NCBI GenBank assembly: GCA_033851955.1 | Contig: JAWSVK010000018.1 | Span: 1-64,000 of the forward strand | Length of the DNA: 64,000 bases | Direction: 5' to 3' | Origin: Marinosulfonomonas sp. | GTDB taxonomy: Bacteria > Pseudomonadota > Alphaproteobacteria > Rhodobacterales > Rhodobacteraceae | Part shown: positions 1-9,231 of the stretch, one piece after another | How positions within the stretch are numbered: position 1 is the stretch's first letter | How the letters are laid out: the number at the start of each line of letters is the position of its first letter | Position numbers and translations under genes: made by a program | The notes under the pieces: model-generated | The model's input: only the letters and a program-made list of their open reading frames with translations | Database searches by the model: none | What the model was told of the DNA's origin: nothing

Positions 1-58
1 GAAATCTTGCGACCACCTCTGTAGGCTTGAAAGTCTTCTAGCTTAGGCATGGGTGGGT

Positions 59-2620
59 CTATAGTCTTGGATCAACTGGTTCACTCTCAAGAGCCAGTAC
101 GGCCAACGCGCATTCATGCACCTTTGATAGTGGCAAGCCCTCAACGAACCGATGCAACCCCTCAAAGCCCAGTTTGAACTCACGTTCCGCCAATGAAAAC
201 TTCCTTCCTAAGCCGCGTTGCCGCAGCCGTTCGATATTCTCAGGTAGATCATAGTCAGGACCATAGATGATGCGGAGGTAGTCGCGTCCACGCACCTTCA
301 TCGCAGGTTGGATCATGCCCTTGCTTCCGTGAACCAAGAAATCGGTTGGCTTGAAGACCAGCCCTTCGCCACCTTTGGATGTGTGATCGAGCCACCACTC
401 AACAACCACTTCCCGTTGTGCGGGATCATCGAGATTGATCTGCTTCCAACCGGTTGCCTGAAGGATCGGATCATTGTCAGCCAGTTTCGAGATCGTCTCC
501 ATGTGCCAAGTGTGGGGCTTGCCTGAGTGAACATGGCCTTCACTCGCCAGAATGTGGAATGGTGCAATACGATAGTCATCGATACTATCAGCTTGCCAGC
601 AATACCCATCAATCGTTTTACCCATCAAACGTGCGTTCAACAGCCTGATCTCGGCTTTGGCTTTCAACTCGGACAGATCATCTATTTCGCCTTTACGACT
701 CAATGCATCAATCAACGCGGCGGCGGAATGTTCAGCAGCAGCCACCGTGGGAAAGTACTGACGTTTTAGCAGGTCTTGGGCTTTGGCGGACCAAGGCATT
801 AATTCTGCGTCTAGCAGCACCCAGTCAGTTCCCAATTCATCCCAAAGGCCTGAAGACTGCATAGCTGTCGCCACACGATCAACCACAGCAGCCTCTGATG
901 TTTCATCCTTGAAGAACGGTCGCCCTGTTCTAGTGAAGATGACACCTGCTTTGCCATCTTCGACACCAAAGCGAACCTGAGCGGCCACAGCACTTTTGGC
1001 GACAACCAATAACGCCCGTGATCCCATGTGTTTCTCTTCGACAACAAGATCGGTCACACCACGACCAGCATAGTGATCCATGGCCTGCTCTGGCCGTTCC
1101 AGGAACGGTCCCTCAGATGCCGTTGGACACGCCGCCATGGTCGGTGGCAGGTATATCAACCAACGCGGATCGACCGCGAAGCGACTCATTACCTCAAGAG
1201 CAGCCAGGCTGTTCTCTTCAGGGATTTGGATCGTTGATTTGAACCGAGTCTCGATCCGCATTTTCGTCGCATAGTCATCGAAATACAAAAGCTTGTCGTG
1301 GTCTTGCTGTGCGGTCAGAGACTGACCCGCATCGAGAGGCTTGGCAGGGATTGCGTATTGCTGTTTCGCAGGGACCGACACCGTTTCCCGTTCAGGCCAA
1401 CGTAGCGCAGTCAGCTTGCCGCCAAAGACGCAGCCAGTATCAATACACATCGTTTGGTTCAGCCATTCAACATTAGCCATAGGCGTGTGGCCAAAGACAA
1501 CATCGGCCTTACCACGGTAATCTCTTGCCCATTCAAGGCGCACAGGAAGACCGAACTCATCCACTTCACCTGTCGTCTCTCCGAACATGGCGAAGTTGCG
1601 AACATAGCCAGACCCGCGACCGTGCATCTCTTCCTTCAGCCCAGCATGTGCGATGACCAGTTTTCCATCGGCAAGCCAGGCGTGGGACCGCAAGTCCCAG
1701 ATGAAGTCACTGGCCTGCTTGCGGAATGCATCAGAAGTCTGTTCAAGCTCGGTCACCGTCAGATCAAGACCATGTGTTTGGGTGACGGACCTACCCTTCA
1801 GCCATTTGTTCAGCTTGAAGTCATGGTTGCCGACAACGCATCGACCTGATCCTTCATCACACATCCCCATAACCAGCCGCAGTGCATTGAGGTTTTTGGG
1901 GCCACGGTCCGTGATGTCACCGACGAAGAACGCGATACGTCCCTCAGGGTGCCTTGCACAAATAAGGTCTTCCGACCCATCTTCATACGGATCGATCTGA
2001 TATCCCAAATTGCCCAGCAGTTTGGTCAATTCATCAAAGCACCCGTGGATGTCACCAATGATATCGAACGGGCCGTGATCTTGGCGGTTGTCGGTCCATA
2101 ACGGCTGACGTTCGATCTGAAGTGCGTCCACCTCTTCTGGAGACTTCATGATGTGAACGTTACGAAAGCCTTCCTTCTGCAAGCCACGCAGCCCCCTACG
2201 TAGGGCTTTAGCGTGGTTTCGAATGACATGCTCACCAAAGTCACGGTTTGAACGCTGTTGGTTGCGTTCATGACAAATCTTTGGGTCGATATCCAACACC
2301 AGTGCAACTGGCAAAGCGTGATACTTTCGAGCAAGTTGGATCAGCTTGGCCCGATCTTCGCGTTTCACCGATGTTGCATCGATGACAGTCAGCAACCGCC
2401 GTTTCAGACGGATGGAGGCGGTGTAGCTCAACAAGTCAAACGCATCGCCCGTGGCGGCCAGATCGGTTTCATTGTCGGACACCAAAGCACGGCAATGGTC
2501 CGAGGAAACGATCTCGGTTTCAAGGAAATGTTTACTGGCAAAGCTCGACTTACCTGAGCCAGTTGAGCCGATCAGAACAACAAGGGCGAAGTCGGGAATG
2601 GTTATCTGTAGATCGGTCAT
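59..2620 (-). CDS. pnkp: Polynucleotide kinase-phosphatase Pnkp (5'-kinase / 2',3'-phosphatase / adenylyltransferase-ligase; RNA repair)
   Basis: N-terminal P-loop kinase motif (GSTGSGKSS). Central calcineurin-like metallophosphatase motifs (GDIHGC, GDITDRG, GNHD). C-terminal ligase-like nucleotidyltransferase domain. Likely start at the internal Met (MTDLQ), whose ATG overlaps the upstream gene's TGA (ATGA). Confidence 0.85.
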   Translation of the reverse strand: MTDLQITIPDFALVVLIGSTGSGKSSFASKHFLETEIVSSDHCRALVSDNETDLAATGDAFDLLSYTASIRLKRRLLTVIDATSVKREDRAKLIQLARKYHALPVALVLDIDPKICHERNQQRSNRDFGEHVIRNHAKALRRGLRGLQKEGFRNVHIMKSPEEVDALQIERQPLWTDNRQDHGPFDIIGDIHGCFDELTKLLGNLGYQIDPYEDGSEDLICARHPEGRIAFFVGDITDRGPKNLNALRLVMGMCDEGSGRCVVGNHDFKLNKWLKGRSVTQTHGLDLTVTELEQTSDAFRKQASDFIWDLRSHAWLADGKLVIAHAGLKEEMHGRGSGYVRNFAMFGETTGEVDEFGLPVRLEWARDYRGKADVVFGHTPMANVEWLNQTMCIDTGCVFGGKLTALRWPERETVSVPAKQQYAIPAKPLDAGQSLTAQQDHDKLLYFDDYATKMRIETRFKSTIQIPEENSLAALEVMSRFAVDPRWLIYLPPTMAACPTASEGPFLERPEQAMDHYAGRGVTDLVVEEKHMGSRALLVVAKSAVAAQVRFGVEDGKAGVIFTRTGRPFFKDETSEAAVVDRVATAMQSSGLWDELGTDWVLLDAELMPWSAKAQDLLKRQYFPTVAAAEHSAAALIDALSRKGEIDDLSELKAKAEIRLLNARLMGKTIDGYCWQADSIDDYRIAPFHILASEGHVHSGKPHTWHMETISKLADNDPILQATGWKQINLDDPAQREVVVEWWLDHTSKGGEGLVFKPTDFLVHGSKGMIQPAMKVRGRDYLRIIYGPDYDLPENIERLRQRGLGRKFSLAEREFKLGFEGLHRFVEGLPLSKVHECALAVLALESEPVDPRL

Positions 2621-3201
2621 GACTTCCATTTTCTCAATTCTGATGCCGCCGCTGTCAGCAGGGATTTTGGGCCAAGTTCTTCCGCCGAGTAGTCGTATGC
2701 AATCGCCTCAAAGACAGAGTCATGAAAGGCAATCGCGAAATGGCGATACCCGTCGAACAAGCTGTCAGAGTGGCGCTGATGAATACGATTTGCGTGACAG
2801 AAATCGCGGATAGCATGAGACTCGATAACTTCTTTGGCGGTGTAAGGGTACAACCCCAACCGACTGAGTGGGTGAGCACCAATCGCTTCTTCGTTCGGTG
2901 GCCCGAGTCGATGCCAAAGAACATGATTGAAACGTATGACAGCCGTAGGTTCTCCCTCACTGCTGACTTCCACCATCCTGACAGACGTACCATCCCAATC
3001 AGGGTCATGTGTTCGCAAGTAGTAAAAGAGGCTCACGCTGTGTTCGTCGGCCAACACAAATGGCATTGGAGCACCACCTGCCATCGATGGTACGCCAGTC
3101 ATGTCTATGAGTGCTTCTATTGACGAATGTTCTTCGTCAGCACCCGAGTTGGGGGCATGATCTAACCGTTGCTGGCCAAATAGAGTTTTCCAAAGAGACA
3201 A
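2617..3201 (-). CDS. Hypothetical protein embedded in the Pnkp/Hen1 cassette (194 aa; probably a TTG start with an AAGGGGG RBS 8 nt upstream)
   Basis: ORF abuts the NTase stop codon and overlaps the pnkp start (ATGA). No recognisable motif. Operon context only. Confidence 0.5.
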   Translation of the reverse strand: MSLWKTLFGQQRLDHAPNSGADEEHSSIEALIDMTGVPSMAGGAPMPFVLADEHSVSLFYYLRTHDPDWDGTSVRMVEVSSEGEPTAVIRFNHVLWHRLGPPNEEAIGAHPLSRLGLYPYTAKEVIESHAIRDFCHANRIHQRHSDSLFDGYRHFAIAFHDSVFEAIAYDYSAEELGPKSLLTAAASELRKWKS

Positions 3202-4008
3202 TTATAATGCCCCCTTAACTATCTGCCGCAACAAGTTGTCGCCTTCAGCCATCAAGTCAGGTCGTTCTTCCTTCTTTGCCACAACAGTTGCCCATGCCAT
3301 CTGATCTTGGATGAAGGTGTCGATCATCGCGATACGCTCACCACGACCAATCTCCTTGGCTTTGCTTTTCAGTACCAACAACTCATCGATATGGATGATG
3401 AGATCGGGTGGTAAGTTTTGGCCTGCGACCAGATCGTGCAAGTTCATTGGCGGCGGTGTACCAGGTATCTGCCTGATCCATGAGATCGCCAAAGCGGGTC
3501 TCAGGATATAGAAATACTTCTTGAAGCTGACCTCTTGGCTATCACCAACGTGCTTATCCCACTGCTTTTGGGCAAGGTTCCGATAGTGGTGCAGGCACGA
3601 TTCACCATAGGTCGTCTTGGCCGCAAACTCGGTGAGTTGAGCGCACAGGTCATCGTTCCACCTGTAGCGAATAGGGCTGGACAGCCATTCCAACATGACG
3701 GGATTAGGCTTGATCAGCAGACCAAGGGCTTTGCGAATATCCCAGCCGTTGATATCCCAGTCTCCTTCAATAGGCAGTTCGATGACATCGCGACCTGGCT
3801 CAATGCTCATGTACCAATCTGGTTGATGCGCATAGATGAAACGCACATCGTAATCGCTGTCAGGCGACGGAAAGCCCCATGCACGGCTACCGCTTTCAAT
3901 GGCAAACAGTACCCTTACACCGTGTTCTACCTCCAAGGCAGTCAGCTTGGATTGGATCACATATTCGATCTCTGGTGAGATGCTGGGTACGAAGGATGGC
4001 AGTTTCAT
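3202..4008 (-). CDS. Pol-beta superfamily nucleotidyltransferase (RNA-repair-associated NTase)
   Basis: hG[GS] and DxD signature in ESGSRAWGF...DSDYDVRF near the N-terminus. The start ATG overlaps the hen1 stop (ATGA). Confidence 0.7.
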   Translation of the reverse strand: MKLPSFVPSISPEIEYVIQSKLTALEVEHGVRVLFAIESGSRAWGFPSPDSDYDVRFIYAHQPDWYMSIEPGRDVIELPIEGDWDINGWDIRKALGLLIKPNPVMLEWLSSPIRYRWNDDLCAQLTEFAAKTTYGESCLHHYRNLAQKQWDKHVGDSQEVSFKKYFYILRPALAISWIRQIPGTPPPMNLHDLVAGQNLPPDLIIHIDELLVLKSKAKEIGRGERIAMIDTFIQDQMAWATVVAKKEERPDLMAEGDNLLRQIVKGAL

Positions 4009-5414
4009 GATGCATCTCCCAAAGTGAAGATGGCCATTTGGGATGGTCCGCCATGGATTTCATCAACAGGACCAAGAGCGGCAAATTCCGCAGTATACCC
4101 GTGTTCATCAGCGACGTGTGTTGCCCACTCTTCAAACTCGGCCCGCGTCCACTCAAAGCGATGGTCAGGGTGACGCAGTTGGTTTTCCTTCATCGTCTCA
4201 AACAAAACGTTGTATTCACGGTTCGGCGTCGTAATCACGACCATATTCGGACGGGCGTCGGCAAAGAGTGACATTACCAAGGCTGACAGCCTGTGTGGCT
4301 CGATGTGTTCGATGACCTCGACAAGCGTTGCCGCATCGAAGCCCTTCCACCGACGATCACCATAGGTGAGGCTGCCCATTTGCAACGTCACACGTTCAGA
4401 CATGGCATCAACCGCCTGATGAAGACGCAATTTACGGTGAGCGGTTTCCAAGGTGCGCACAGATGGATCAACGCCGACGATCCGATCAATACCGCGTTCT
4501 TTGGTCAGCCGAGAGATCAGCTTCCCTTCGCCGCAGCCAAGGTCGAGAACAGATTTCACATTCTTCTGCCGCAGGGCATCAGCAACGGCATCCAAACGGA
4601 TGTCATGTAGCCGTAGGGGCTTTTCCAGTTGTTCTTCCGGCTTCAGTTTCGGGATCTCTTCGTCGTCATCTACGACTGCGGAATCCTCCAGCCGAGCCAA
4701 AGCCATGTTCGTCAACGACCGCCGATGCTTCAATGCACGACGGGTGATCAACTCCTTAGCTGGGTGGTTCGCCAGCCAGCCCTCACCCTTGGCAAGCAGT
4801 TTGTCTATTTCTTCTTGTGCAACGAAGTAGTGCTTGAAGTTGTCCATCACAGGAATCAGCACGTATAAATGGTTCAGAATATCGCCCAACCGCAACTTCG
4901 CGGACAGGCGCAGATCAATCACTGCAAGATCATCAACGTCGTCAGTTGAATGGATCACGTACCCCAGTGGTTCGAACAGCGACTTCAGCAGTTCTAGATC
5001 GCCTGACAATGCAACGGGAAGGACGCGGATTTCAAAGTCTAAAAGTTGATCAGCCAATTCCTGACGATCCTTGGACTTGCCTGCCATCGTCTGAGAAAAT
5101 GACCGAACAAGCGCCACCGACAGGAAAGAGTTTGCCACAAAGGGGCGATCATTCACGTACTGAGCCAGAAGCCCGTCGGACTGCTGGTTCTTGCCGCGAA
5201 CCAACCCAATTGGATCGACTTCGAGATGCAATACCGCAGTCGTGCATTCGTCTGAAACCTCAGGGTAGAATATCGTCACATCACCCGCAGATGTCTTCTT
5301 GGTATGAACATGATCTGGATGTTTATGCAGTAGAAAGCCGAGATCACGGGCGGAATAGTCCACGCCATTTTTTGCCAACAATGTAATCTCGATTTGCATA
5401 ATACTCGGCCTCAA
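4005..5414 (-). CDS. hen1: Hen1 RNA 3'-terminal ribose 2'-O-methyltransferase (bacterial Hen1)
   Basis: C-terminal Rossmann SAM-binding motif VLDLGCGEGKL. N-terminal domain typical of bacterial Hen1. First gene of the cassette. Confidence 0.85.
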   Translation of the reverse strand: MRPSIMQIEITLLAKNGVDYSARDLGFLLHKHPDHVHTKKTSAGDVTIFYPEVSDECTTAVLHLEVDPIGLVRGKNQQSDGLLAQYVNDRPFVANSFLSVALVRSFSQTMAGKSKDRQELADQLLDFEIRVLPVALSGDLELLKSLFEPLGYVIHSTDDVDDLAVIDLRLSAKLRLGDILNHLYVLIPVMDNFKHYFVAQEEIDKLLAKGEGWLANHPAKELITRRALKHRRSLTNMALARLEDSAVVDDDEEIPKLKPEEQLEKPLRLHDIRLDAVADALRQKNVKSVLDLGCGEGKLISRLTKERGIDRIVGVDPSVRTLETAHRKLRLHQAVDAMSERVTLQMGSLTYGDRRWKGFDAATLVEVIEHIEPHRLSALVMSLFADARPNMVVITTPNREYNVLFETMKENQLRHPDHRFEWTRAEFEEWATHVADEHGYTAEFAALGPVDEIHGGPSQMAIFTLGDAS

Positions 5415-5592
5415 GGAATCTCGTTGGTTGCAGGACTATCAACGATAGGTGGTGCCAACAACATGGTATTGAAATGGTGTTTATATGAATGGTCTGTATT
5501 CACGCGACCTGTGTGATAGAAAATCATGATCTGGCGGTCAAACTTGAATATGAATTAGGACAAGCAGCATCAATCAAAGATTGATGGCAAAA

Positions 5593-5619
5593 GTTCGAAT
5601 TCCGATTGAGTATTCGAAC
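5593..5619. promoter_or_regulatory. Inverted repeat GTTCGAAT-N11-ATTCGAAC in the leader of the hen1 cassette
   Basis: Perfect 8-bp inverted arms read directly from the sequence, about 180 nt upstream of the hen1 start codon in a 540-bp AT-rich intergenic region. Confidence 0.3.
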
Positions 5620-5954
5620 CCAATGTGATGACGTTTGCTACAATAATATGCTACGATACCCCATATAATCATATCATAAACATCTGTTAATAATAGGGAA
5701 ATACGAGCTTTCGCAACTTCCCTTCGGCTCCGCCACTACACTGTTTCGCCAAGGTGTCTGATTTGCTCTAGGCAGAATGCTGGGAAACCGAGCTATATGT
5801 GGATTGATTGCCTCAATCATATGAACTAAATTCAAAATTGGATGCGCACAAAAAACCCCCGCTTGGCAAGACGGGCAAAAGGTCTGCATGCAGCTATGTG
5901 CCTATGCTCCATGTCAGAATGGCTGCAACTAGGTGGAATTGAGGGAGACATTTG

Positions 5955-7559
5955 ATGCTAGACGTCGGTGAATTTGACTACGTAATTGTCGGGGCCGGGT
6001 CTGCAGGATGTGTGCTTGCCAATCGCCTGAGCGAAGACCCCAAAAACCAAGTTTTGCTCCTAGAAGCTGGCGGCAACGACAATTACCACTGGATCCATAT
6101 TCCAGTCGGATATCTATATTGCATCGGCAACCCACGGACCGACTGGAGGTTTTCAACGGCTCCCATCGAAGGTTTGAACGGGCGAACGCTTTTGTACCCT
6201 CGAGGCCGTGTCCTTGGCGGATGTTCCTCCATAAACGGCATGCTTTACTTGCGGGGGCAGGCCGCGGATTATGACGGCTGGCAGCAGATGGGAAACACCG
6301 GTTGGGGTTGGGATGATGTGCTGCCATATTTTATGAAATCCGAGGACTATTTTAGTGGCAAAGATGATCACCACGGACAGGATGGTGAGTGGCGCGTTGA
6401 AGAGCAGCGCCTGAACTGGGAAATCCTCGAGGCATGGAAAGTGGCGGCCACCGAGGCTGGCATTCCCGAGACACACGACTTCAATCGTGGGGACAATTTC
6501 GGCGTCGGCTATTTCAAGGTGAACCAACGTTCAGGCTGGCGGTGGAGCACTTCAAAGGCGTTTCTGCGCCCTGCCAAAACACGGGCCAACCTGACTGTCA
6601 TGACCCATGCACAGGCCGAAAAAATATTGATATCCGACAAGCGCGCAACCGGCGTACAGTTCTTGCACAAGGGCAGCAAATCAAAGGTCAGTGCGCGGCG
6701 TGAAGTGATCTTAGCCTCCGGCGCAATTGGCTCACCTCAATTGCTGCAATTATCTGGCATCGGCCCCGGGGGCTTGCTGCAAAAACATGGCATCGACATT
6801 GTGCATGAGGCACCTGATGTTGGCGGCAATCTGCAGGACCACTTGCAAATCCGCTGTGCCTATAAAATTCAGGGCGCAAAAACGCTGAATACGATGGCCT
6901 CGACCCTGTGGGGCAAGGCCAAAATCGGGCTTGAATATGCCCTGAAACGTACCGGCCCGATGTCCATGGCCCCCAGTCAACTTGGGGCTTTTGCCTATTC
7001 GGATGACCGCATGGAAACCCCCGATTTGGAATACCACGTGCAACCCGTGACGCTCGAGGCATTTGGGCAAGATCCGCACAGCTTCCCAGCGATCACCGCC
7101 AGTGTCTGCCACTTGCGCCCCGAAAGCCGTGGCCATGTTCATATCACCTCACCTGACGCACAGGCACATCCTGAAATTCAGCCGAACTACCTGTCGACCG
7201 ACGGTGACCGCGCTGTGGCCGCCAGCGCAATCCGGCAAACCCGTAAGATCATGGATCAACCCGCCTTGGCGCCGTATATGCCCGAAGAATTCAAACCGGG
7301 GCCGCAACATCAATCAGAGGAAGAGCTGATAGACGGCGCTCGCCAAATCGCCTCAACGATTTTTCATCCGGTTGGTACGGCCCGCATGGGCACGGATGCG
7401 CAGGCTGTCGTTGATCCCCAATTGCGGGTCAATGGCATCAACAATCTGCGTGTCGTGGACGCATCAATCATGCCGAATATCACCTCGGGCAACACGAATT
7501 CCCCGACCATCATGATCGCTGAGCGCGCCAGCGACTTAATCCTGAAATCAGCGACTTAG
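5955..7559 (+). CDS. GMC family oxidoreductase (choline-dehydrogenase-like flavoprotein)
   Basis: N-terminal FAD-binding fold [24 protein letters not shown] signature regions. ATG at 5955 with a GAGGGAG RBS. The track's 5952 start is a TTG one codon earlier. Confidence 0.85.
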
Positions 7560-7604
7560 GTGACAGGCGGCTCCCCCTGTTATGAGCCCCAGCATAAACA
7601 ACAA

Positions 7605-7632
7605 AGGCCCCGCAGCGCCATGCCGCGGGGCC
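7605..7632. terminator. Bidirectional rho-independent terminator hairpin (AGGCCCCGC...GCGGGGCCT) with U-runs on both sides
   Basis: GC-rich stem flanked by AACAACAAA upstream and TTTGTCATT downstream. Lies between the convergent GMC gene and the 514-aa gene. Confidence 0.5.
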
Positions 7633-7686
7633 TTTGTCATTCAATCACGGTTGCCAAATCGCAGCGGCATCAAGCATAGATCGCGC

Positions 7687-9231
7687 CTAAACGGCACGCA
7701 AAGGTACAACATTACCGTTTGGCGAGGACCCAAACTCAGGGAGCGTCCCATCATGGATGGTGCTGAGCGCAAGCGCCCGTAACGCATCACGCTTCATCTC
7801 CATGATCCGGTAATAGGTTTCTTGCGAGCGGATCGGATATATCGCGTAATGCGTGGCGTCCCCACTGGCCACGCGCATCTGCTCAGCCCAAGGTTCAAAC
7901 TCGCGACGGCGTGCGACAAGTGGCTCGAATTGGAAGGCCGGATCGACCGAAAGATCAAACAACGCTGTAAGGTATTCAGCTTGGCGCGTCCGCTCGTGAT
8001 TGCCACCCAATGGAACAAAGACAAAGGCCTGACATACGTTGTCACCACCCTGCCCCTCGTCCTCATGCCCGGGCAACACCGGAAAATCCCAAACGAAATT
8101 GCGCAGAACCCAGGCCGTGCGATGGATCTGTTGCTGCTCTTTGCCCGTCATCATCACGGCGCGCCCGACCCCATGGCCAAAAGCACCGCCCAGACTGACC
8201 AAATCAATTAACAATGTGAAAAGCGCAAAAGGCAGGATGGTTGCGCGGCTGATGCCGACATCACGTCCCTTGTCCTCGTCGATCAGGATCGGAACGACCA
8301 TTGCGAACGCATCAAAAATCTTGACCTCGCGCCGCAACGGAGGCTGCATCGGCAAATCGACAACATCATGCGCGGCGGTCGCAATTTCGGCGAACAACGC
8401 TGCCAGTTCGGGGTCGGAGCAACCTCGCTGTTGGTTTTCAAAAAAGAAACCCGCGCCGCCATAACCGCGGGCCAAGGCATCCGCCTCTTGGGCGATAAGC
8501 AACCGATCGGGATTGGTCCGCAGCGCCCGCGCATCTGAAAACAACGTATTAACGACGCTCTGATCCTTGGCGGAAATCAACGCTCGCGCTGTCTTTTCTG
8601 CCGCCGTGCTCAGCACAGCTGCCCGACGCGCGATGCTGTTGGCAGCTTTCGCGCCCTCAGCCCGCATACGGGTCAACGGCCCAATTCCGCGTGCAGATAC
8701 CCCACAAGTGCCCCCCACTGCGGCTTCCCGAGTTGAGCGCTTTGCCGCAAGACGGTCAGCACGTGCCGCCGTCAACGCGACACCCGCCATGCCATCGGCT
8801 AACCCGTTGACCGGCTCTATTGTGGCGGAAAAAGCCGCATGGTTCATCAAGGCCTGAACCCCGTCGCGGTTGTTAAGATACAGCAGTGCAGTCGTTGCCG
8901 TTAGCACCGAAAGCGACGACATGACCAAGCCTCCAGCAATATAATGCCAGACACGCGGCGCAGGCAAAGCGGCCTGCGCACGCCGTAAATGTTTTTCACG
9001 GCTGCTGCGTCCTGCTTGCAACCAAAAACGGAATGCAAGAAGGGTCAAAAACAGTGTCGACACCGCAGACACAGCGATGCGGGATGACTCATTTAGGGAT
9101 GATCCCGTCAGCGAAAAGTAAATTCCACTGCCGCTCAAAACGGTCGAAAGGACCAAAGCGATCCCCCCGACCAGACCGGCGATTGAGACGCCGTTCGACA
9201 ACAATTTTGATATGGTTTGGGAGCGTTTCAT
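7687..9231 (-). CDS. Hypothetical membrane protein (514 aa; N-terminal TM helices, Ala-rich central region)
   Basis: Long ORF with hydrophobic N-terminal segments. No recognisable catalytic motif. Its start overlaps the upstream small gene's stop (ATGA), so the two form an operon. Confidence 0.5.
   Translation of the reverse strand: MKRSQTISKLLSNGVSIAGLVGGIALVLSTVLSGSGIYFSLTGSSLNESSRIAVSAVSTLFLTLLAFRFWLQAGRSSREKHLRRAQAALPAPRVWHYIAGGLVMSSLSVLTATTALLYLNNRDGVQALMNHAAFSATIEPVNGLADGMAGVALTAARADRLAAKRSTREAAVGGTCGVSARGIGPLTRMRAEGAKAANSIARRAAVLSTAAEKTARALISAKDQSVVNTLFSDARALRTNPDRLLIAQEADALARGYGGAGFFFENQQRGCSDPELAALFAEIATAAHDVVDLPMQPPLRREVKIFDAFAMVVPILIDEDKGRDVGISRATILPFALFTLLIDLVSLGGAFGHGVGRAVMMTGKEQQQIHRTAWVLRNFVWDFPVLPGHEDEGQGGDNVCQAFVFVPLGGNHERTRQAEYLTALFDLSVDPAFQFEPLVARRREFEPWAEQMRVASGDATHYAIYPIRSQETYYRIMEMKRDALRALALSTIHDGTLPEFGSSPNGNVVPLRAV

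Follow-up and report, generated by a model that had tools for sequence, protein, structure and literature searches.

We analysed a 64,000-nucleotide stretch of Marinosulfonomonas sp. DNA (contig JAWSVK010000018.1, hereafter the window), in which the gene of a 194-aa protein, here called protein X, lies between rlaP and pnkp in an RNA-repair operon. Pnkp-Hen1 is a textbook bacterial RNA-repair system and is thought to require only two proteins. The position immediately before pnkp was found to be a variable accessory slot, which holds X, a Barstar-family gene, a HEAT-like gene or nothing, and X itself belongs to a large family that is undescribed in every library searched and has no solved structure. 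X is probably an optional helper in the repair of toxin-cut RNA. Our preferred reading, a tentative one held at somewhat less than an even chance, is that X serves a Hen1-(RlaP)-X-Pnkp anti-ribotoxin operon as an optional accessory and is probably an enzyme with a His/Asp/Glu site that acts on RNA-end or phosphoribose chemistry.

The gene of protein X and its operon

The coding sequence of X is located at 2617..3201 on the minus strand, starts with TTG and ends with TGA, as determined from its open reading frame (ORF), purifying selection and homologues. Its 5' junction on the minus strand reads GTTAAGGGGGCATTATAA followed directly by TTG. The stop codon TAA of rlaP (3202-3204) abuts the start of X with a gap of 0 nt, and a Shine-Dalgarno-like AAGGGGG is present within the 3' end of rlaP (3210..3216, minus strand), 8 nt before the TTG. 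In orthologous operons the motif reads AAGGGGG (loci L003 and L009) or AAGAGAG (L011 and L012), and the TTG of the window aligns with ATG in four orthologous operons. The initial annotation, made from the sequence alone, had proposed this ORF with its TTG start, the 8-nt spacing of the ribosome-binding site and the 0-nt gap, and all of these were borne out.

Comparison of X with six orthologues gave a non-synonymous divergence of 0.15-0.32 and a synonymous divergence (dS) of 0.46-0.85; pN was 0.15-0.19 where pS was 0.46-0.81. The ratio of non-synonymous to synonymous divergence (dN/dS) was 0.09-0.23 in comparisons with unsaturated dS, and differences at third codon positions predominated. Two overlapping ORFs (2655-3008 minus and 2722-3123 plus) had been named at the outset as alternatives that might be conserved in place of X; their frames are not kept open in the orthologues. 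Judged by this pattern of substitution, X is a genuine, selected coding gene.

The TGA of X overlaps the ATG of pnkp at 2620 as ATGA, and the overlap described in the initial annotation therefore holds given this conserved pnkp start. Although the pnkp ORF can be extended to 2629, its start was placed at 2620 because the upstream ATG (2629) is CTG in L009 and L011. The TIGR04075 alignment to the longer ORF begins at residue 8. A pnkp gene annotated from 2629 would gain three spurious residues. The X-pnkp junction is ATGA or GTGA in six operons and an 8-nt overlap in L004, where the ATG lies inside ATGAATAA. Sequence conservation at both junctions indicates that X is translated from TTG and that its expression is tightly coupled to that of pnkp.

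All four genes of the operon, hen1, rlaP, X and pnkp, are packed tightly on the same strand. The first, hen1 (4005..5414, minus; TIGR04074, 591 bits), encodes an RNA 3'-terminal 2'-O-methyltransferase with the N-terminal ligase-activating region (PF12623) and C-terminal methyltransferase domains. It is followed by rlaP (3202..4008, minus), which encodes a PF10127 nucleotidyltransferase (E = 4e-82), and, after X, by pnkp (59..2620, longest ORF to 2629, minus; TIGR04075, 1245 bits). The kinase, metallophosphoesterase and ligase modules of this kinase-phosphatase-ligase are all present (PF13671, PF00149 and PF16542). The biology of Pnkp-Hen1 has been described (PMC3675462, PMC4411300), and RlaP is known to extend the 3' ends of damaged RNA by one or two nucleotides (bioRxiv 10.64898/2025.12.29.696909). 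The window holds no paralogue of X, no Rfam RNA was detected in positions 1-8000, and positions 1-9000 gave no near-identity match to plasmids.

The position before pnkp in related operons

X lies directly 5' of pnkp in every member with readable context of 12 lineages of one alphaproteobacterial clade, and the conservation of position proposed in the initial annotation is thus upheld in 12 independent lineages. Three operon architectures were found. The order Hen1-RlaP-X-Pnkp occurs in the window, L003, L009/L010, Sulfitobacter (L001/L011), Ruegeria (L012), L173, L174/L175 and L176/L177; Hen1-X-Pnkp without RlaP occurs in L004-L007 and L008; and RlaP-Hen1-X-Pnkp occurs in Hyphococcus (L013). 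X is kept in the same position across these architectures down to 47-54% identity. In a neighbour-joining tree, which carries no support values, the pnkp-linked X proteins form one clade with the RlaP-less forms basal. The core of X shares 71-78% identity with orthologues, and the corresponding values of Hen1, RlaP and Pnkp are 76-92%; X is thus constrained, slightly less than its three neighbours.

The conserved genomic partner of X is Pnkp/Hen1 and not RlaP. X is linked to Pnkp(-Hen1) rather than to RlaP because RlaP is absent from some X operons or lies elsewhere in them. Co-occurrence with the adjacent nucleotidyltransferase, the pairing suggested initially, did not hold: X is present without RlaP in L004-L008, and RlaP does not adjoin X in L013. 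Conversely, RlaP operons with Pnkp 85-87% identical to that of the window either lack X (L095, L133) or carry a substitute (L093/L094, L096).

Metagenome contigs were scanned with the window Pnkp, which yielded 80 loci, 51 of them with enough upstream sequence to be evaluated. hen1 directly abuts pnkp in 40 of the 51, and RlaP or an RlaP-like gene does so in five; upstream of pnkp in L128 neither Hen1 nor RlaP was found. None of the 80 loci contained X. X is therefore not a regular component of Pnkp-Hen1 operons (0 of 51 evaluable metagenomic loci) and is confined among them to the single alphaproteobacterial clade. Two tandem divergent RlaP-like genes lie between hen1 and pnkp in three soil metagenome loci (L111 1329-3078, L135 2-781 and L138 2-1269).

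The slot was occupied by other genes in several of these operons. In L093 and L094, with Pnkp 87% identical to that of the window, a 167-aa Barstar-family gene lies exactly in the slot of X (L093 5486-5989; L094 about 969-1472). It scores 26.9 bits on PF01337, for which the gathering threshold is 23.4, overlaps rlaP by 4 nt and is separated from pnkp by 2 nt. These two loci thus have an RNase inhibitor built into the RNA-repair operon itself. Homology of X to the slot Barstar was rejected, as X has no match to the PF01337 profile and the hhalign probability against the L093 protein was 0.15%. A 166-aa HEAT-like protein is encoded in the slot of L096 (5487-5987; Pnkp 84% identical to that of the window), and in L119/L121 hen1 and pnkp are separated by the gene of a 289-aa HEAT_2 protein (5129-5995). 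L095 and L133 have an rtcB-hen1-rlaP-pnkp backbone with the slot empty, and their RtcB is 93-95% identical to that of Sulfitobacter. The slot is accordingly interchangeable with a known RNase inhibitor family.

Any gene that comes before pnkp either overlaps or adjoins it. The initial annotation had taken the tight junctions of X as an argument for stoichiometric co-expression. The junctions are indeed conserved, but they are not specific to X; start/stop coupling is generic to the predecessor of pnkp and therefore provides no specific evidence for an X-Pnkp complex.

The operons differ in what lies around them. In Sulfitobacter and Ruegeria the X operon extends upstream with rtcR, ro60, YrlA-like Y RNAs and rtcB. 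The Sulfitobacter region (L001 1438-6960) comprises rtcR, ro60 (TROVE/vWA), two YrlA-like Y RNAs, a tRNA-like element with a score of 67 bits, and rtcB. The Y RNAs score 65.8 and 40.1 bits, neither of which reaches the gathering score of 69 bits. These upstream genes place the Sulfitobacter X operon within an RtcR-type RNA-damage regulon. The window has no rtcR, ro60, Y RNA or rtcB genes upstream of hen1. Its 537-nt region 5' of hen1 (5415-5951), which is divergent from a GMC-oxidoreductase-like ORF (5952-7559), holds TTGGCAC; a canonical sigma-54 promoter was rejected here, as TGGCAC is present with no -12 TTGC in register. In Sulfitobacter sp. DFL-14, hen1 and rlaP are separated by a gene (L001 8491-9174, equal to L011 6491-7174) whose 227-aa product matches nothing in Pfam or NCBIfam; the Ruegeria operon (L012), otherwise collinear, lacks it. 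X is homologous neither to this protein nor to Hen1 (hhalign probability about 0.1% each). In L003, the two genes directly upstream of hen1-rlaP-X-pnkp (2160-4113) encode a stand-alone RNA ligase (PF09414) and a kinase-phosphatase-like protein of the HD+AAA_33 type; the pair resembles an additional, Pnkp1/Rnl-like repair module within this cluster. Further upstream in the window, an ORF of 514 aa (7687-9231, minus), predicted to have hydrophobic segments at its N terminus, appears unrelated to X.

The family of protein X

A word-indexed search identified 13 close relatives of X, and their profile was used in a full HMMER search. The family comprises at least 1,716 clusters (50% identity) at E <= 1e-3 and 1,025 at E <= 1e-10, and all of its named members are labelled 'hypothetical protein' and are free of Pfam domains. 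A pattern scan found 349 loci among GTDB species genomes, and the members are distributed over Planctomycetota, Verrucomicrobiota, Acidobacteriota, Bacteroidota, Myxococcota, Cyanobacteria, Pseudomonadota and other phyla. X had been presented at first as a protein of the RNA-repair operon; it is not operon-specific, since this family is mostly stand-alone. No credible family was found for X in Pfam (none at E <= 1), NCBIfam, PADLOC or PHROGs, and PDB sequence searches with two profiles of the family (A1 and A2) gave nothing meaningful, in agreement with the earlier statement that the protein has no detectable motif. X did not match the PF10127 Pol-beta nucleotidyltransferase profile, and no Pfam domain, immunity families included, was detected in X and 41 family members. 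No relatives were found on IMG/VR viral contigs.

Family members are typically about 172 aa long and share the motifs GAPxP, DPxWDG, FGPPNDEAxxGHPL, GLxPY, NxVHxxH and RHFxxxFHDSTFE. An alignment of 132 diverse sequences has 17 invariant columns (G43, A44, P47, G100, P102, E105, H110, L112, G116, S128, N138, H141, H154, F159, H160, D161 and F164), and 27 further columns, including H144 and E165, are at least 90% conserved. The invariant polar residues, all in the core, are four His (H110, H141, H154 and H160) together with E105, S128, N138 and D161. The core domain (residues 28-194; 2620..3120, minus) was delimited from this alignment and the structure model. It is preceded by an N-terminal extension (residues 1-27; 3121..3201, minus), defined by the alignment and by a predicted local distance difference test score (pLDDT) of 48-67. 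The extension carries a conserved W4..LFG9, is predicted to be disordered and occurs in one sub-clade only; it is missing from the general family of about 172 aa (P0010-P0012 and solo members).

The family is acidic, with a median isoelectric point (pI) of 5.5 and a net charge of about -8, and the other operon proteins are of similar pI. This acidity weighs mildly, as weak evidence, against a generic RNA-binding role and fits an enzyme or an immunity protein. Paraburkholderia sp. PGU19 has copies on two replicons, in two places on each. One of its members, on plasmid p3 (L091 5989-6438), lies among stress genes encoding two Hsp20, CsbD, a ferritin-like protein and a phasin.

A first AlphaFold model of X from 14 sequences was unusable (pLDDT 54) and was replaced by one from 132 sequences, which predicts an alpha+beta fold with a pLDDT of 86.7 and a predicted template modelling score (pTM) of 0.80. 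Comparison of this model with the PDB gave two weak, partial resemblances covering about half of X, to the immunity protein PIM7 (8OWU) and to 5V77, an uncharacterised Neisseria gonorrhoeae protein. Comparison with viral structures (BFVD, Foldseek) gave no match. As modelled, X has a fold without a close solved relative and a partial, weak likeness to an immunity protein. PIM7 is the immunity protein of the LXG polymorphic toxin PT7, which is a DNase (bioRxiv 10.1101/2021.10.19.465003). PDB sequence searches gave no sequence similarity of X to PIM7 or 5V77. X is about 60 residues larger and has a strongly conserved set of His-rich motifs; PIM7 adjoins its toxin and has a fast-evolving binding surface, whereas X has no toxin neighbour.

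Among 80 fetched genome loci of the family, 77 had no Hen1, RlaP or Pnkp within 8 kb. No neighbour was conserved across these 77 loci, and a Pfam census of 150 X-family neighbours was heterogeneous. The genes inspected upstream of solo members encode MetK, GlmS, an IDH-like dehydrogenase, GH3 and similar housekeeping proteins, and a location of solo members beside polymorphic toxins was rejected on this basis. A conserved gene downstream of the divergent members in L002 and L014 was also rejected, as the two downstream genes share no homology.

In a second lineage X is coupled to a different RNA-end enzyme, the RNA 2'-phosphotransferase KptA (Tpt1). Two-gene X-KptA/Tpt1 modules were found in three Pirellulaceae-type contigs (L030 7968-9058, L178 2849-3939 and L179 1233-2323), the two genes overlapping by 7 nt in L030 and L178 and separated by 84 nt in L179. 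X is 83-100% identical among the three, and the paired KptA matches NF002014 at 255 bits and PF01885. By a rough estimate, not a computed one, chance alone would place a KptA gene next to X in about 1% or less of a 77-locus sample. In L178 the pair follows SUKH-1 (PF09346), Imm51 (PF15595) and an antitoxin fragment (Unstab_antitox) on the same strand. In the X-containing operon of Ruegeria (L012), pnkp is followed by kptA at a distance of about 260 nt.

Possible functions of protein X

Under the reading tentatively preferred above, X would have been recruited into the operon from the large, widespread, stand-alone and undescribed family, and would be a catalytic or metal- or ligand-binding protein. 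An enzyme or metal- or ligand-binding role is suggested because the invariant His, Asp, Glu, Asn and Ser are dense and shared across phyla; E105, H110, S128, N138, H141, H154, H160 and D161, with the near-invariant H144 and E165, may form a putative active site. At the ends of damaged RNA, X may take part in 2'/3'-phosphate or phosphoribose chemistry or process one of its by-products, and may prepare or complement steps carried out by Pnkp and, in the other lineage, by Tpt1/KptA. RNA-end chemistry is proposed because of the two partnerships with RNA-end enzymes, Pnkp and KptA, together with the housekeeping contexts of lone members. Other stand-alone repair enzymes likewise sit among housekeeping genes. 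RlaP offers a parallel: like X, it is optional, variably present and placed in Hen1-Pnkp and RtcB operons, and widespread outside them. Unlike X, RlaP has a demonstrated activity, on damaged RNA 3' ends (bioRxiv 10.64898/2025.12.29.696909), and it is a Pol-beta-fold nucleotidyltransferase, whereas the fold of X is different and without close relatives. Several observations weigh against an enzyme of RNA-end chemistry. The protein is acidic; it is dispensable, being missing from near-identical operons or replaced there by an RNase inhibitor, and is therefore not a core pathway step; and the KptA link was seen in three contigs, related to one another, and no longer holds at 64-73% identity (L019, L041, L180).

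A more specific form of this idea, that X is a previously unrecognised ribose cyclic-phosphodiesterase, is proposed by analogy and is very unlikely. It would fit because of the invariant His, the independent coupling to Pnkp and KptA and the 2H-like size. The 2H phosphoesterases (LigT/ThpR, the CPD domain of tRNA ligase and yeast Cpd1), at about 175-190 aa, are near X in size, and the analogy would extend to their His-based chemistry on ribose cyclic phosphates in pathways with Pnkp-like healing and Tpt1. X has neither the two H-x-T/S-x motifs nor the 2H fold that define them.

It is possible, although rather unlikely, that X is instead an immunity-type protein that blocks an incoming ribotoxin stoichiometrically; the slot would then be a swappable immunity cassette in an operon that both blocks the nuclease and repairs the cut. 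The slot of operons with 87%-identical Pnkp does hold a Barstar-family RNase inhibitor and is elsewhere HEAT-like or empty. This Barstar resembles X in position (rlaP-slot-pnkp), in size (167 aa) and in acidity, but its inhibitory mechanism is established, unlike that of X, and the two are not homologous. The weak fold matches to PIM7 and 5V77, the X-KptA pair in a same-strand array with SUKH-1 and Imm51 (L178), the faster divergence of X than of the flanking enzymes, an acidity like that of nuclease inhibitors and a sporadic distribution with multiple copies in Paraburkholderia sp. PGU19 all point the same way. However, eight invariant polar residues, four of them His, across phyla would be atypical of a class of proteins whose toxin-binding surfaces evolve fast (PIM7: bioRxiv 10.1101/2021.10.19.465003). 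X was not found downstream of a toxin gene or in an immunity array in the 77 genome loci, L178 with its upstream SUKH-1 and Imm51 being the exception, and the neighbours checked were housekeeping genes. X has no sequence link to the Imm, SUKH or Barstar Pfam families, and the structural match covers only about half of it and leads to the inhibitor of a DNase, not of an RNase. Nor did PHROGs, PADLOC, BFVD or IMG/VR place X among phage-encoded proteins or known defence systems.

The initial annotation had suggested a non-catalytic subunit of Pnkp-Hen1, namely a specificity factor, an RNA-binding factor or a regulator. We consider this improbable, although X adjoins pnkp and overlaps it at the start/stop codons in all 12 lineages and the conserved, predictedly disordered W4..LFG9 peptide of the sub-clade could be a docking motif. 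Archease, a small operon-encoded accessory that modifies catalysis by the RNA ligase RtcB (PMC3973293), is a precedent for such a helper; its conservation with RtcB is universal, whereas few Pnkp operons have X, and the two proteins are related neither in sequence nor in fold. More than 95% of the sampled family has no Pnkp or Hen1 within 8 kb, and the ancestral function of the family therefore does not depend on that complex. Furthermore, Hen1 abuts pnkp with no accessory gene in 40 of the 51 evaluable loci, tight coupling is common to any gene preceding pnkp, and the acidic pI argues, if weakly given the similar values of the other operon proteins, against RNA binding. The scatter of the family over unrelated contexts and the acceptance of unrelated genes by the slot would also suit an unrelated passenger, inserted in the operon by chance. 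This is very unlikely in view of the retention of X in position to 47-54% identity in three operon architectures and of the second, independent pairing with an RNA-end enzyme, KptA.

The operon type and RlaP are already known, and the X family is undescribed in the libraries searched. The literature searched made no mention of the variable accessory slot or the X-KptA pairing; the RNA-repair survey of Burroughs and Aravind (2016) lay outside that search, and a prior mention is possible. If X were a cyclic-phosphodiesterase, then X, the kinase and ligase of Pnkp, and KptA would constitute in some bacteria a pathway of the fungal or plant type, with healing, sealing and removal of the 2'-phosphate; the three genes lie in one operon in Ruegeria (L012). 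X would in that case be the long-sought source of substrate, or the means of product clearance, for bacterial Tpt1/KptA. The family, with its at least 1,700 clusters, its His-rich signature and its two independent genomic links to RNA 2'/3'-end enzymes, may offer a way to approach the role of Tpt1/KptA in bacteria, which lacks an explanation. X is a concrete, cheaply testable candidate for a missing bacterial RNA-repair activity, and the variable slot before pnkp ties RNA repair directly to anti-ribotoxin defence.

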